Positions 13,533 through 62,939 are shown, counted from the whole stretch's first letter. The stretch is 62,939 bases of DNA, filler included, from Stramenopiles sp. TOSAG23-6 (GCA_900128565.1; 9 parts of 9 records of this genome joined end to end with filler, not necessarily neighbours in it); one strand, 5' to 3'. The notes: generated by a model not told the origin, from the sequence alone. Program-made: numbers and translations.

Positions 13533-15322
13533 ATGGCATCGCATGTACCAGAGTGTGTGTCCAATAGAATCATGCAACTCTTGGTGGGAGATTCATCAAA
13601 GAGTGATACTATTGTGACAGACACAAAAGCGATACCACAGCCTCAACCATCAGTAGCAACAACAACGACAATACCAATGACTTCCCCCGAGTCAGACATC
13701 CTACATAAAAAGTGTTCTTCAGCTATATTACATCGTCTTTGTGATCCTTCTGGACCTGGATTTTGTATCATTGATAATTTCATGGGTCAGAAAAAAGCAC
13801 TTGACGTTCTTGCAGAGGTAAAAAGACTTGATAAAAAAGGTAATCTAAAAGTGGGAGGAATGGGAAGAGGACAGAAGAAGTGGGTGGATACTTCTATTCG
13901 AGGCGACCGTTTTATGTGGGTACCTGGTGGAATTGATTGTGATGGTGCACCAAAACCTCTTGAAAACTTATTCCAAGAAATGTCTAGAGTAAAACAAACA
14001 ATTCAAGTGTTTTCAGAACCATGTCAATTGACGGACAAATCATCTGTTCAGATTGCGTGTTACCCGGGTACTCCCAATGAACCAAGAGGATATCATCGAC
14101 ATTTGGATGCTTATCCACAAAGAGAGAAAAACAATAGTGAAAATATAAAAACTATAGAAATCAAGGAACAACGAAAATTCACATGTTTATATTATCTATG
14201 TCCAAATTGGAAAAAATCTGATGGTGGAATGCTTCGACTGTATTTGTCAAACCACCCTAACCCTANTAACCCTAACCCTAATACCCTTGAGAAATTTCAT
14301 GATGTTGCACCGATTTTAGATCGGTTATTAATTTTACGTTCTGATTTTGTAGAGCATGAAGTACTAGATTCATTTACAAATCGCATTGCTATCACTACGT
14401 GGTTATATGGTACTGGGTCTATACTGCCTTCAAATAATACACAATTAATATTGCACACGAATCAGGATAATCATGATAATCATGATATGATTCAAAATCG
14501 AGAACAAATGAATAATTCATGTCTTACAAAAAATTCTGGAAAAGAAATCAACACAATATTTGTATCTGTTGCTTCCTATAGAGATTCCGAATGTCACCAC
14601 ACAATTAATAATCTATTTAAAAATGCCACACGACCAGAATTAATTACTGTTGGTGTGTGTTGGCAATTAGATTGTAAAGAAGATGAAGATTTCGTTAATG
14701 TTCCATTAACACATCCAAAACAGGTCCGTACCATAAAAATGGATTATAGAGATGCAAAAGGACCTGCATGGGCACGACATATTATACAAGGAATGTGGTC
14801 AGGAGAGAAATATTATCTTCAAATTGATAGTCATATGAGATTTGATAAAAATTGGGATAAAAAATTGTTGGATTGGATAAATCAATGTTCAAATATTTGG
14901 AATGATGACAAGGCAATTCTCACAACATACCCTCCTGGGTATTCCTCGATTGATGATCATCCTCGACAACACAATCAAAGTATAAATTCTCCTCCTCCCC
15001 CAACAGTTTTATGTGCATCTCATTTTAATGAAACAGATGGCATGCTACGTATAAAAGGTGTTCAACTTCAAACGGAAAGACATGTACGTTTTTTTCCAAT
15101 TTTTTTTTTTTTTTTTTTTNNNNNNNNNNNNNNNNNNNNNNNNNNNNNNNNNNNNNNNNNNNNNAAATCAATTTTTTTTAAATATTTTCCACAAATACAT
15201 ACACCAATACCTCAAAATTTCTGGGCAGCTGGATTTAGTTTTAGTAGTTCAGATGTTATTGTAGAAGCGCCATATTTAGGTCATGAGTGGCAATGTTTAT
15301 TTTTTGGTGAGGAATCAGCCAT
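13533..15322 (+). CDS. Fusion of PHD/PhyA-type prolyl 4-hydroxylase and GT60 (Gnt1-type) GlcNAc transferase, 3'-partial, intron 15084-15200
   Basis: IRGD, YHRHLD, TCLYYL..W...DGG.LRL, HEV..R.AIT (EGLN/PhyA); then [49 protein letters not shown] (Gnt1-type). Confidence 0.85.
15084..15200 (+). other. Introner-family intron, GT-AT (contains N gap)
   Basis: CAT|GTACGTTT…ACAAATACAT|ACA; splicing gives [16 protein letters not shown]. Confidence 0.7.
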
Positions 15323-15528
15323 GTACATTTTCAACATTCATTTGTTTTTTTACCTATTTTTTTTTTCATACGAAATTTTGTACCTAACGATTTTTTTTAT
15401 TTTTACTAAAAAAAAAAAATATATTTTTNNNNNNNNNNNNNNNNNNNNNNNNNNNNNNNNNNNNNNNNNNNNTTAATTAATTAANNNNNNNNNNNNNNNN
15501 NNNNNNNNNNNNNNNNNNNNNNNNNNNN

Positions 15529-16351
15529 TAGGTTGTGAGTCACTTCCACCACCGTCAGCACTAGGTTGTGAGTCACTTCCACCGCCACCCCTATCAATAC
15601 CATGCAATGCAAAAGTAGAGGGATGGTGAATCGCATCTAGTCCAAAGAATCCTCGTTTCCCTCGTCGTGGCTTTGTTCTTTTGCCTCTATACCCCCTCTG
15701 TCCAGAAATTCCGTTCAAAGCAAAATTCGACGGGCTATGTATAGCATCCAATCCAAAGAAGTGTCGCGCTTTTCTCGCTGCTTTCCCATTTCGTCCTCTT
15801 TTCCCAGGACGCCCACGTGCACCATCTCTTCCATCACGTCCTGGTTTCCCTTGAATACCTCGAGTCCCAGCAACACCGCTTTTTCCATCACGTCCTGGTT
15901 TCCCTTGAATTCCTCGCGCCCCATCAACACCACTTTTCCCATCACGACCAGGTTTCCCTTGAATACCTCGAGCTCCTGTTTCACCCCGTACACCAGAAGG
16001 TCCTTGTTCTCCACGTGGTCCCTGTTTGCCTTGCATACCAGCAGGGCCTCTCTTACCAACTATTGTTTGTCCTGGAGGACCGGTTGGTCCTACTACAGTA
16101 TCTCCCTTTGCTCCACGTCGACCACGACGTCCACGACTCCCGCGACCTCCAACAGGCCCCACAGGACCTGTAGCACCTCTCGGACCTGTCGCTCCAGCTC
16201 GGCCTACATGTCCGTCTTCGCCATTCAAACCGTCACGACCATCACGACCTCGAGCACCTGTTTCACCTTTTACACCAGCAGTTCCTTGTTCTCCACGCTC
16301 ACCTTTCTCACCTTTCAAACCTTGAAGGCCCCTATCACCTTTAAATCCCAT
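15529..16351 (-). CDS. Collagen-like Gly-X-Y protein, partial
   Basis: Long Gly-X-Y run; repeated FFGLDAIH motif; runs into the contig end. Confidence 0.85.
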
Positions 16352-61757: not shown

Positions 61758-61858
61758 NNNNNNNNNNNNNNNNNNNNNNNNNNNNNNNNNNNNNNNNNNN
61801 NTTAATTAATTAANNNNNNNNNNNNNNNNNNNNNNNNNNNNNNNNNNNNNNNNNNNNT

Positions 61859-62939
61859 AGTGATTTAGATCATAGTGATGATATTTTTTCAAATACAAAT
61901 AGTGATTTAGATAATAATGATGATATTATTTCAAATACAAATAGTGATTTAGATCATAATGATGATATTATTTCAAATAAGAGTTGTTATGAAGAGGAAA
62001 TTGCAGATCAAACTTGTCACAAAAAACATAAAAAACAATCTGAAGTCAATGAAATTGTTCCTGAACAAATGTCAACGTCACCAAAACCTCCCCACACACC
62101 ATGTATGTTTTATTTTTTTTCAAATTCTAATTTTTTGTTTCGTACGAAATTTGATACCTAACAAAAAACTTTTTTTTTTTTGAAATTCTAATTTTTTTTC
62201 GTACGAAATTTTGTACCTAACAAAAAACTTTTTTTTTTTTTAAATATTTTTCCGAAATACATGCCCTGCTTATGCTGAAATGCAAATACCTGCTCTCCAG
62301 TATGCAATGGCAAATTATGGAATGAGAAAAGCTTCAAAGAAAGTAATGGTACAAAAACTAACTGAGTTTTGGCACTTTTTGAGAAAGGATAAACTCATTC
62401 AAAAGACTAAAGAAAAAAAAAAAAGAAAGAAAAAGAAGAAGACTAATTTGATTTGTCGACAGAATTGTAATGTAGTTGCTCTTCCTGTACCTGATGAAAA
62501 TGGTCATATAGATGCGGTACTTGCACCTGTACGTTTTCAGTATGAATTTCAAATTTTTTTTTCGTACGAAATTTCGTACCTAACAAATTTCGAATTTAAT
62601 TTTTTTTACGATACATGTTATCCAAGGCTGTAAAGCTGGAAAAACAACGTGTACGAATCAAAGTGATCAAAAATGTAGTGAATGCAATAATAACAGCACA
62701 CGAGAGAGCAATGGAAAAATCTGTAAATGTAAAGACGGGTTTTACGGAGACTGCACCCAAACATGCACCAACAGGGCAAATTCAACTTGTACTAAATGTA
62801 GTTCAATTAATGTATGTACTGCTTTAACTTGCACTAATGGTTTTCTTAATGCAGATAATGATGCCAGTAATGGTTGTGAAAAAGCATGCACCAACAGGGC
62901 AAATTCAACGTGTACTTCATGCACTTCAAATGACACATG
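61859..62939 (+). CDS. SLX4-type SAP-motif protein fragment continuing into Cys-rich repeats (introns 62103-62262, 62529-62616); possibly two genes joined
   Basis: TPCPAYAEMQIPALQYAMANYGMRKASKKVMVQKLTEFW resembles the SLX4 SAP motif; then CKCKDGFYG and CTNRANSTC repeats. Confidence 0.55.
62103..62262 (+). other. Introner-family intron, GT-AT, with duplicated branch module
   Basis: CCAT|GTATGTTT…CGAAATACAT|GC CCT; two TTTCGTACGAAATTT..TACCTAAC units; no AG inside. Confidence 0.82.
62529..62616 (+). other. Introner-family intron, GT-AT
   Basis: CCT|GTACGTTTT…TTTCGTACGAAATTTCGTACCTAAC…ACGATACAT|GTT; opens the Cys-rich frame to the window end. Confidence 0.75.

Follow-up and report, generated by a model that had tools for sequence, protein, structure and literature searches.

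Introner-like repeat copies that start with GT and mostly end in AT interrupt genes of a marine stramenopile

Introns end in AG almost universally. In a stretch of 62,939 nucleotides from Stramenopiles sp. TOSAG23-6 (GCA_900128565.1; this whole stretch is referred to as the window), we found genes interrupted by short inserts that start with GT and mostly end in AT, and these inserts are copies of one introner-like repeat family with an element of ~100 nt. The inserts are probably transposon-derived introns of the U2 type whose 3' end is read as A-N. On this reading, an introner-like element of ~100 nt would have spread through genes of a marine stramenopile and would be removed from pre-mRNA by the major (U2-type) spliceosome, which would cut after the last T; the A at position -2 would be the one invariant base at the 3' end, followed by T in the majority of copies and by G or A in a minority. 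Upstream exons mostly have (C/A)AT as their final bases, and the element may thus duplicate or prefer a CAT-like target. Precise removal is predicted to be required for at least ten otherwise intact genes, and a spliceosome that accepts A-N ends would be the simplest account.

One repeat family and its terminal signals

The window consists of nine AT-rich contigs of ~7.6 kb each, separated by linkers of the form N44-TTAATTAATTAA-N44. Two contigs (23283-30924, 7642 nt; and 46468-54067, 7600 nt) match their own reverse complements at 100% and are perfect palindromes, most likely as an artifact of amplification or assembly. All genes and introns on these two contigs are consequently present in duplicate, and mirror copies were merged so that each locus was counted once. 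Under this rule, the window contains 24 complete short inserts (88 to 160 nt), all starting with GTA, of which 17 end in AT, 1 in AA, and 6 in AG; a seventh AG end (43523-43597) is putative. An earlier note on this DNA had counted 18 GT-AT, 2 GT-AA, and 4 GT-AG inserts, which is close to the tally per locus and differs from it mainly through palindrome duplicates. Its description of inserts with a GTAYGT start, a CTAAC branch motif, an AATAYAT-type end, and a GT-AT majority agrees with what we found.

The terminal signals are uniform on the 5' side. Positions 1 to 3 of the 5' splice site are G, T, and A in 23/23 introns each, followed by T (14), C (8), or G (1) at position 4, by G in 18/23 at position 5, and by T in 22/23 at position 6. 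Among family-aligned 3' ends, position -2 is A in 24/24, position -1 is T in 20, G in 3, and A in 1, and position -3 is C in 21 and T in 3. The exon 5' of the intron has T as its last base and A as its second-last base in 18/23 cases each, and the exon 3' of the intron begins with G in 14/24. CTAAC or CTAAT was found in 14/15 AT introns, in the AA intron, and in 6/6 AG introns; the distance from a strict CTAAC to the intron end is 21 to 52 nt (mostly 33 to 52 nt), and a T-rich tract follows the motif. The inserts therefore carry a U2-type 5' end resembling GT(A/G)NGT as well as a CTRAY branch motif with a pyrimidine tract, whereas the U2-type 3' YAG is missing from the 18 of 24 complete introns that end in AT or AA, even though a pyrimidine occupies position -3 in 24/24. 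The GT start is the only feature common to all copies, and 24/24 intron copies lie in sense orientation to their host genes.

A motif from the open reading frame (ORF) translations of the inserts was searched and gave 28 matches, which were aligned end to end, and an nhmmer profile with a seven-copy seed gave ~37 nonredundant matches in the window. The program-derived consensus of the element is GTATGTTTTATTTTTTTTTCAATTTCGATTTTTTTTTCGTACGAAATTTTGTACCTAACAATTTTTTTATTTTTTTTTGAAATATTTTTCCAAAATACAT, with a GTAYGT 5' splice site, the branch motif TACCTAAC, a T-rich tract, and the end AATACAT; its ends, flanks included, form an inverted repeat of 6 to 7 nt. We counted 21 occurrences of the 19-nt core ACGAAATTTYGTACCTAAC, whereas 100 shuffles contained none. 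Individual copies agree with the consensus at 67 to 94% of positions, and the corresponding 6 to 33% of divergence indicates that many are not recent. Four contigs start and two end within the element, as is expected of an assembler that meets a high-copy repeat. Three introns of 143 to 160 nt are tandem head-to-tail dimers with GT-AT ends, namely, 25138-25280 (+ strand; mirror 28927-29069; phase 0; 137 codons open upstream and 144 downstream), 26196-26351 (- strand; mirror 27856-28011; phase 1; 238 and 162 codons), and 62103-62262 (+ strand; phase 1; 81 and 122 codons), and in these the outer GT and the outer AT alone are in phase with the exons.

All introns found in the window are family members or diverged relatives of them, and the host genes include those for carnitine acetyltransferase, a PhyH-like dioxygenase, an ion channel, phosphoglucose isomerase (PGI), a hydroxylase, a methyltransferase-like protein, and an ATP-synthase-alpha-like protein. 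Two features that define introners are thus present, i.e., similar introns recur across unrelated genes of one genome, and their removal restores the uninterrupted coding sequence of the homologs. The pattern of copies is that of an introner burst. Given one repeat family, the AT end was inherited either from a master element or from the insertion site, and it therefore amounts to one evolutionary observation, not 18. The interpretation in the earlier note stands with regard to intron anatomy, junctions, and annotation, and needs revision in that the introns are not independent of each other, being copies of one family. Its proposal of a spliceosome with relaxed last-nucleotide specificity is a plausible one.

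Nine of 17 non-AG introns end in the same 3 nt that precede their donor, compared with 6.5 expected when pairs are shuffled (P 0.054); matching of flanks and ends by position gives a P of 0.023. The odd flank/end pairs CAA/CAA and TAT/TAT covary. Evidence for target duplication is marginal. The match would fit a target duplication of 3 to 4 bp that supplied the last bases of the intron, and it fits equally an insertion preference for CAT|G or reverse splicing. No strain lacking a given copy was found.

Outside the window, the 19-nt core was found in no viral contig, in one bacterial metagenome-assembled genome (a chance match), and in four metagenome contigs. One of the latter, L004, is the sole true copy among the four: it reads CAT|GTATGT...CAATACAT|GG, lies in frame between ORFs of ~178 and ~46 codons, and provides an AT end from an independent data set. 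Two others (L002 and L003) were rejected as family copies, as they share a different repeat of ~250 nt that contains the 19-nt core. Within the window, a 52-nt miniature derivative lacking the branch motif (40322-40373, - strand; CAT|GTAAAA...AAAATACAT) is situated at the end of a protein kinase ORF, and its removal would lead to a TAG stop at the junction.

Junctions, reading frames, and RNA

Homologous proteins fix four junctions to the codon and without gaps, including three with AT ends (two in the carnitine acetyltransferase gene and one in the hydroxylase gene) and one with an AA end (in the channel gene). Precise GT-to-AT or GT-to-AA removal restores conserved proteins in the predicted translations. 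The carnitine acetyltransferase gene (47757-50160) contains three introns on the + strand: (i) a GT-AG intron at 49148-49259 (mirror 51276-51387), whose end, CAATACAG, resembles that of the family and whose removal gives ...IKKTIKVSPDA; (ii) a GT-AT intron at 49372-49480 (mirror 51055-51163 on the - strand; phase 0; 53 codons open upstream and 122 downstream); and (iii) a GT-AT intron at 49790-49921 (mirror 50614-50745). The junctions of the second (FRH|GRT) and the third (CH|WTLSTS), which had been proposed as exact, are gap-free against six homologs, and neither has an in-frame AG within 40 nt. With all three introns removed, the predicted protein comprises 682 amino acids, aligns with positions 7 to 626 of the 631 positions of the homolog profile (664.2 bits), and terminates in AKL, a peroxisomal signal; the homologs end in SKL or AKL. 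Exons that follow the AT introns show 27 to 42% identity to the six homologs, compared with 38 to 42% for exon 1.

Exon 1 has one match at 98% identity, the EukProt protein GSMAST32.ASY1.ANO1.554.1 (P0001), and all other matches, led by brown algae, oomycetes, and diatoms, are at ≤44%. P0001 is the only public model of this gene, and it illustrates how prediction bound to AG affects such genes. At the AT introns, the model uses AG acceptors further downstream, and at intron 1 both the GT and the AG are shifted 4 nt downstream. As a result, P0001 has 570 instead of 682 amino acids, scores 541.6 instead of 664.2 bits, and lacks 30 conserved residues (GRTDTVRS...LHE), the C-terminal 112 residues after CH, and the AKL signal. 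The one public model bears out the expectation that gene predictors would mistranslate these genes.

The hydroxylase gene (Asp/Arg beta-hydroxylase) is interrupted by a GT-AT intron ending in AATATAT (43736-43836, + strand; phase 1; 345 codons open upstream and 170 downstream), whose junction HRL-S-GRDD is colinear and gap-free against 10 homologs and whose downstream exon matches positions 37 to 157 of Pfam Asp_Arg_Hydrox. The same gene carries a degenerate antisense family copy (43516-43586, - strand; nhmmer E 4.4e-5), which coincides with an insertion of ~25 residues relative to 10/10 homologs. The putative 75-nt intron on this copy (43523-43597, + strand; the frame stays open) is probably a separate GT-AG intron using its own sites, since a GT and an AG on the strand of the gene bound the insertion at exactly 75 nt. 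In the gene for a cyclic-nucleotide-binding ion channel, the GT-AA intron (34781-34883, + strand; phase 1; 106 codons open upstream and 489 downstream) has the junction FTA|TITPYE, which is gap-free against eight homologs, as the earlier note had held; its flank and its end are both CAA.

The PhyH-like dioxygenase gene on the - strand contains a GT-AT intron at 33388-33488 (5' flank ACT; phase 2; 152 codons open upstream and 75 downstream). The exon after this intron starts exactly at position 110 of the PhyH profile with the iron-binding motif PYHQD, in accordance with the junction PL|PYHQD that had been proposed; a PhyH paralog on contig 2 aligned too weakly to fix this junction. Three further introns of the gene are a GT-AT intron at 33139-33229 (phase 1; 55 codons open upstream and 34 downstream; in-frame AG at +15), a GT-AG intron at 32970-33081 that ends in TCATACAG and is followed by an exon matching PhyH profile positions 187 to 213, and the last intron at 32717-32839, which is GT-AG and carries the family core. 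The catalytic motifs of PhyH lie in exons flanked by AT introns. The PGI gene, also on the - strand, contains a GT-AG family copy at 37962-38056, with flanking exons that match Pfam PGI, and a GT-AG intron at 38307-38414 that carries the 5' half of the family and has TTGTAG as its first in-frame acceptor. Another copy is represented by its 3' part (38602-38656, - strand), which precedes a PGI exon; the contig end truncates this copy, and its upstream exon is missing. The PGI exon has to start at or within the Y codon of YVTSDG, and the possible intron ends (CAA, AAT, and ATA) include no AG.

Reading frames were compared across the whole family. To place the ends of each copy, the terminal 10 nt on either side of the program-derived consensus were matched without gaps and the best match was taken. 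The longest ORF ending at the donor was then compared with the longest ORF starting at the acceptor for compatible phase, for which the chance is 1/3 per copy. Phases were compatible in 13/13 testable program-placed copies (12 AT and 1 AA), and also in three hand-placed copies (49790-49921, 24660-24778, and 15084-15200). Copies whose ends were poorly placed by the probes were left out of the 13-copy count (12022, 22717, 22964, 24665, 25615, 32800, and 38044, together with 38400, 40241, 41814, 43586, 49860, and 56622); some of these later proved to be AG or AT introns. The copy at 23145 (23042-23168) was left out of the frame count because the contig ends within its upstream exon.

An in-frame AG within 40 nt on either side is absent from 10/15 AT introns. 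In three copies (54396, 24402, and 34781), an AG lies downstream of the branch motif and upstream of the intron end; those of 54396 and 34781 are out of frame, and splicing in these two would have to skip an AG.

The family is also represented in RNA. Five seawater and plankton metatranscriptome runs, each sharing 6 to 9% of words, were considered, and four of them were aligned to the contig at 31025-38656. In three runs, contigs of 287 to 410 nt matched without differences, indicating that the organism or a near-identical one was present. One true splice joint was recovered (37959->38055), in which 95 nt are skipped with CT..AC on the plus strand, i.e., GT-AG on the gene strand. This joint removes the PGI intron copy at 37962-38056 exactly at the family consensus end (AAATACAG) and restores FDQWG-VQLGK, which indicates that the machinery cuts the family at its consensus end when the last base is G. 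AT and AA members would by extension be spliced at the same place as this AG sibling, and the spliceosome of the lineage would tolerate or prefer a last base other than G. Most other joints in the RNA runs are jumps between paralogous element copies, and the element depth, which reaches 2728 in run X1, is a sum over many loci and perhaps several organisms. Searches for transcript-derived proteins of the organism with carnitine acetyltransferase, PGI, and the channel gave, besides P0001, no match above 77% identity and hence no indirect evidence from RNA.

Several observations weigh against splicing at AT ends. The single RNA junction comes from one contig of the polyA run X3, at a depth of 3 and with 41 nt on the shorter side. 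Exons beside AT and AA introns are not covered by the RNA runs, and the number of AT or AA junctions recovered is therefore zero, although the missing coverage is in itself neutral. One X1 contig (32855-33108) is unspliced across the AG intron at 32970-33081, and another (37894-38040) runs into the copy at 37962-38056; such intron-retaining contigs could represent pre-mRNA, DNA carry-over, or poor splicing. An in-frame AG does lie within 40 nt in 5/15 AT introns (at -30 for 24402, +15 for 33229, +27 for 25138, +39 for 56924, and +9 for 23168), and the class of 24402-24523 is ambiguous because the frame to its AG 30 nt upstream is fully open. We know of no precedent in the yeast and human spliceosome structures for pairing of G(+1) with U(-1) at the second catalytic step. 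In addition, exact restoration of the frame would follow from any transposon insertion that duplicates its target, even an unspliced one.

This last point leads to an alternative in which the AT copies are unspliced or poorly spliced transposon insertions in dead or dying genes and the AG copies alone are true introns. Taking out the element plus one copy of the target duplication would restore the frame regardless, the 3-nt flank/end match (9/17) is of the kind that such insertions would leave, and the RNA-run contigs that retain family introns, together with the lack of AT junctions in RNA, point in the same direction. Nevertheless, the 17 AT copies are distributed over at least 10 different genes, all in sense orientation, and although the copies are 6 to 33% off the consensus, the exons downstream of them are open over 34 to 489 codons and keep catalytic motifs, homolog-level identity, and the C-terminal AKL. 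The termini are conserved even in copies whose interior has diverged (e.g., 49372-49480; nhmmer E 0.077). We consider this alternative unlikely, as open downstream exons, homolog-level identity, and sense orientation argue, if indirectly, that the AT copies are removed.

That an error in sequencing or assembly turned a terminal G into T can practically be dismissed. The two palindromic contigs do reveal amplification artifacts in the assembly, but 20 independent ends have T, compared with 3 G and 1 A in the same family, and the copy in L004 also has T. Moreover, contigs from the RNA runs of three studies agree with the window up to and including the final T, no intron end having a T>G change listed; their coverage comes largely from paralogous copies.

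If the boundaries were placed 2 nt to the left, the inserts could be read as AT-AC introns (ATGTATGT...ATAC) of the U12 type or of a rare U2 type. An upstream exon that ends in AT makes such a shift neutral for the mRNA, and this applies to 14/19 non-AG copies, including L004. The shift is impossible, however, in the copies at 33388-33488 (ACT), 62529-62616 (CCT), 23042-23168 (ATC), and 34781-34883 (CAA). The inserts contain neither an ATATCC donor nor the TCCTTAAC branch site, the U12 donor ATATCCTT is likewise absent, and the AG siblings begin with GT in the same way, with RNA confirming GT-AG borders for one of them. An AT-AC reading is accordingly very improbable.

Another way in which the inserts could be precisely removed is a route based on pairing of their ends, as in euglenids, or excision at the DNA level, as for the internal eliminated sequences of ciliates. 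The inverted ends (CAUGUAU...AUACAUG, 6 to 7 nt with flanks) are paired in the minimum-energy fold of 5/8 copies. The folds themselves differ little from those of shuffled sequences, with z-scores of -0.02 to -1.03 in 6/8 copies and +0.11 in a seventh; one copy alone reaches -3.22. Conservation of the GT, the branch motif, and the T-rich tract as in spliceosomal introns speaks against both variants, as does the AG-ending sibling, which is spliced from RNA while being retained in DNA. We also know of no somatic DNA elimination in single-nucleus flagellates. Removal by either route appears to have a low probability.

Beyond the reading of the inserts as U2-type introns with A-N ends, the major spliceosome of the lineage may follow a general rule, recognizing a YA-N 3' site in which U is favored over G and preferring U, not G, also at the end of the upstream exon. 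We put this forward as a conjecture that is somewhat more apt to fail than to hold. If the rule were true, it would imply matched changes in U2AF35 or in the step-2 factors Prp8, Slu7, and Prp18, and perhaps changed contacts of U1 or U5 with the exon end, and an introner adapted to the rule would have brought most introns of the genome into the GT-AT class. No spliceosomal genes or small nuclear RNAs were found within the window.

Further copies and sequence context

The remaining AT-ending copies are scattered over several contigs. A GT-AT copy at 15084-15200 (+ strand; phase 0; 272 codons open upstream and 76 downstream) is not fully readable owing to a run of N in the middle of the intron (15120-15164); on the same strand, at 15323-15428, the contig ends within a copy (CAT|GTACAT), leaving its 5' part. 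On the - strand, a family copy with a non-AG end has in-frame AT ends at 22858 or 22855 (22855/22858-22964), with no in-frame AG among the listed acceptors, and 23042-23168 is a GT...ACAT copy whose upstream exon is missing as noted above. Two GT-AT copies on the + strand of the first palindromic contig are 24402-24523 (end AATTTAT; mirror 29684-29805; phase 0; 325 codons open upstream and 74 downstream) and the hand-placed 24660-24778 (donor GTAGGT; end TTACAT; mirror 29429-29547). In the methyltransferase-like gene, the GT-AT copy at 32183-32275 (+ strand) is a stop-free 93 nt in frame, and its removal is unprovable by frames alone. Two other GT-AT copies on the + strand are 54396-54519 (consensus probes matching at 10/10 and 9/10; phase 0; 76 codons open upstream and 70 downstream) and 62529-62616 (5' flank CCT; phase 0; 95 and 107 codons).

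The ATP-synthase-alpha-like gene (54914-57362, + strand) is divergent, probably mitochondrial, and has long low-complexity inserts; the nucleotide-binding domain profile matches at 55/213 positions only. It contains a GT-AG intron with the family interior and the in-frame acceptor TGGGAG (56618-56720, + strand) and a GT-AT intron ending in AATATAT (56924-57023, + strand), for which a possible second donor in the same phase lies ~38 nt upstream.

Contig starts at 1-54, 7769-7823, 31025-31079, and 54168-54224 (all + strand) represent 3' parts of copies ending in ...ATACAT; RNA-run contigs match the third of these to 31079 and then diverge. A family copy at 11952-12022 (- strand) was recognized without its 3' end being found, and further candidate copies are located at 25534-25615 (- strand), 22650-22717 (- strand), 41814-41857 (+ strand), 40241-40298 (+ strand), and the center of a palindrome (26996-27076).

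The GC content is 33 to 40% across most of the window and 22 to 27% between 22 and 32 kb. Runs of N within contigs are found at 15120-15164 and 39337-39405, and single N's occur at eight places. Rfam and tRNA scans of the whole window found no family and no tRNA. Several long genes are free of introns, including a 1733-codon coiled-coil ORF (2511-7668, - strand), an 813-codon gene on the same contig, and ORFs of 822 and 560 codons. The intron load is thus very uneven among genes.

Telomere-like (CCCTAA)2-3 repeats are scattered in genes at 19 places in the window (e.g., 14270, 24068, 31972, 41567, 49163, 49798, 54729, 56406, and 60188) and are also present in L004 (~890-950), against what we take to be ~0.01 occurrences expected by chance in the window. 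Nearly all read CCCTAA on the sense strand of the longest ORF that crosses them, giving NPNP in coding sequence. They lie directly 3' of the donor in two carnitine acetyltransferase introns, and one overlaps a stop codon. The CCCTAA repeat includes the branch motif CTAAC.

Comparison with known systems

In the literature reached by our search, which left most subscription journals outside, we found no published precedent for GT-AT as the main intron class, the only results being incidental mentions of GT-AT or GU-AU introns and a minor-intron survey. Should the AT junctions be confirmed by RNA, we would know of no earlier organism in print with GT-AT as its main intron class and of no earlier introner family with a non-AG end.

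Introners have been described from Micromonas, Aureococcus, Chrysochromulina, Symbiodinium, fungi, and other organisms, in which near-identical short introns likewise reside in unrelated genes (doi 10.1101/2022.06.06.494994; PMC12130899). According to the portions of this literature available to us, those elements also resemble the present family in bringing their own 5' splice site and branch signal, in leaving the mRNA length unchanged upon removal, and in forming tandem copies. The known families were defined there on GY-AG introns, whereas 18/24 copies of the present family end in AT or AA. As far as its accessible text indicates, a 2025 curation of introners admitted 3' sites with AG or AC only and removed families that had unfamiliar sites but no RNA support (PMC12130899). 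Some introner families reportedly co-opt the 3' site from the target duplication (doi 10.1101/2022.06.06.494994, in the part available).

The U12-type AT-AC introns are another class outside GT-AG with strongly conserved signals; the present inserts differ from them in the absence of the U12 donor and branch consensus and in the four copies incompatible with AT-AC borders. Nonconventional introns of euglenids likewise have noncanonical borders and pairable ends, and their borders are described in the available text as variable and dependent on stable structure (PMC4770533), whereas here the borders are uniform, the signals are spliceosomal, and the folds resemble those of shuffled sequences in 7/8 copies.

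Splice sites are not mentioned in the accessible text of the single-cell genome papers on marine stramenopiles. For marine flagellates, single-cell genomes with 2694 to 3289 predicted genes in assemblies of 19 to 21 Mb have been reported in a paper whose available text does not use the word "splice" (PMC5778133), and gene numbers of this kind may be tied to AG-bound prediction. Predictors bound to AG would misannotate the genomes of uncultured marine flagellates with introns such as those described here.

The nearest precedent for a major spliceosome that handles non-AG ends at scale is the tunicate Fritillaria borealis, in which, according to the text available, noncanonical introns are removed by a U2-type spliceosome with duplicated, divergent U2AF subunits (PMC13326754). 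In both systems, the majority of introns would lack a 3' AG under the major spliceosome, and standard predictors fail. In Fritillaria, less than 10% of introns are GT/AG, the 5' GT has been lost as well, and the host is an animal (PMC13326754, same text), whereas in the present case GT is kept in 23/23 introns, the last base alone departs from the rule, the introns belong to one repeat family, and the host is a protist. If the reading of these introns as U2-type introns with A-N ends is true, the stramenopile would offer a natural test of the need for a terminal G at the second catalytic step and a second independent case beside Fritillaria.

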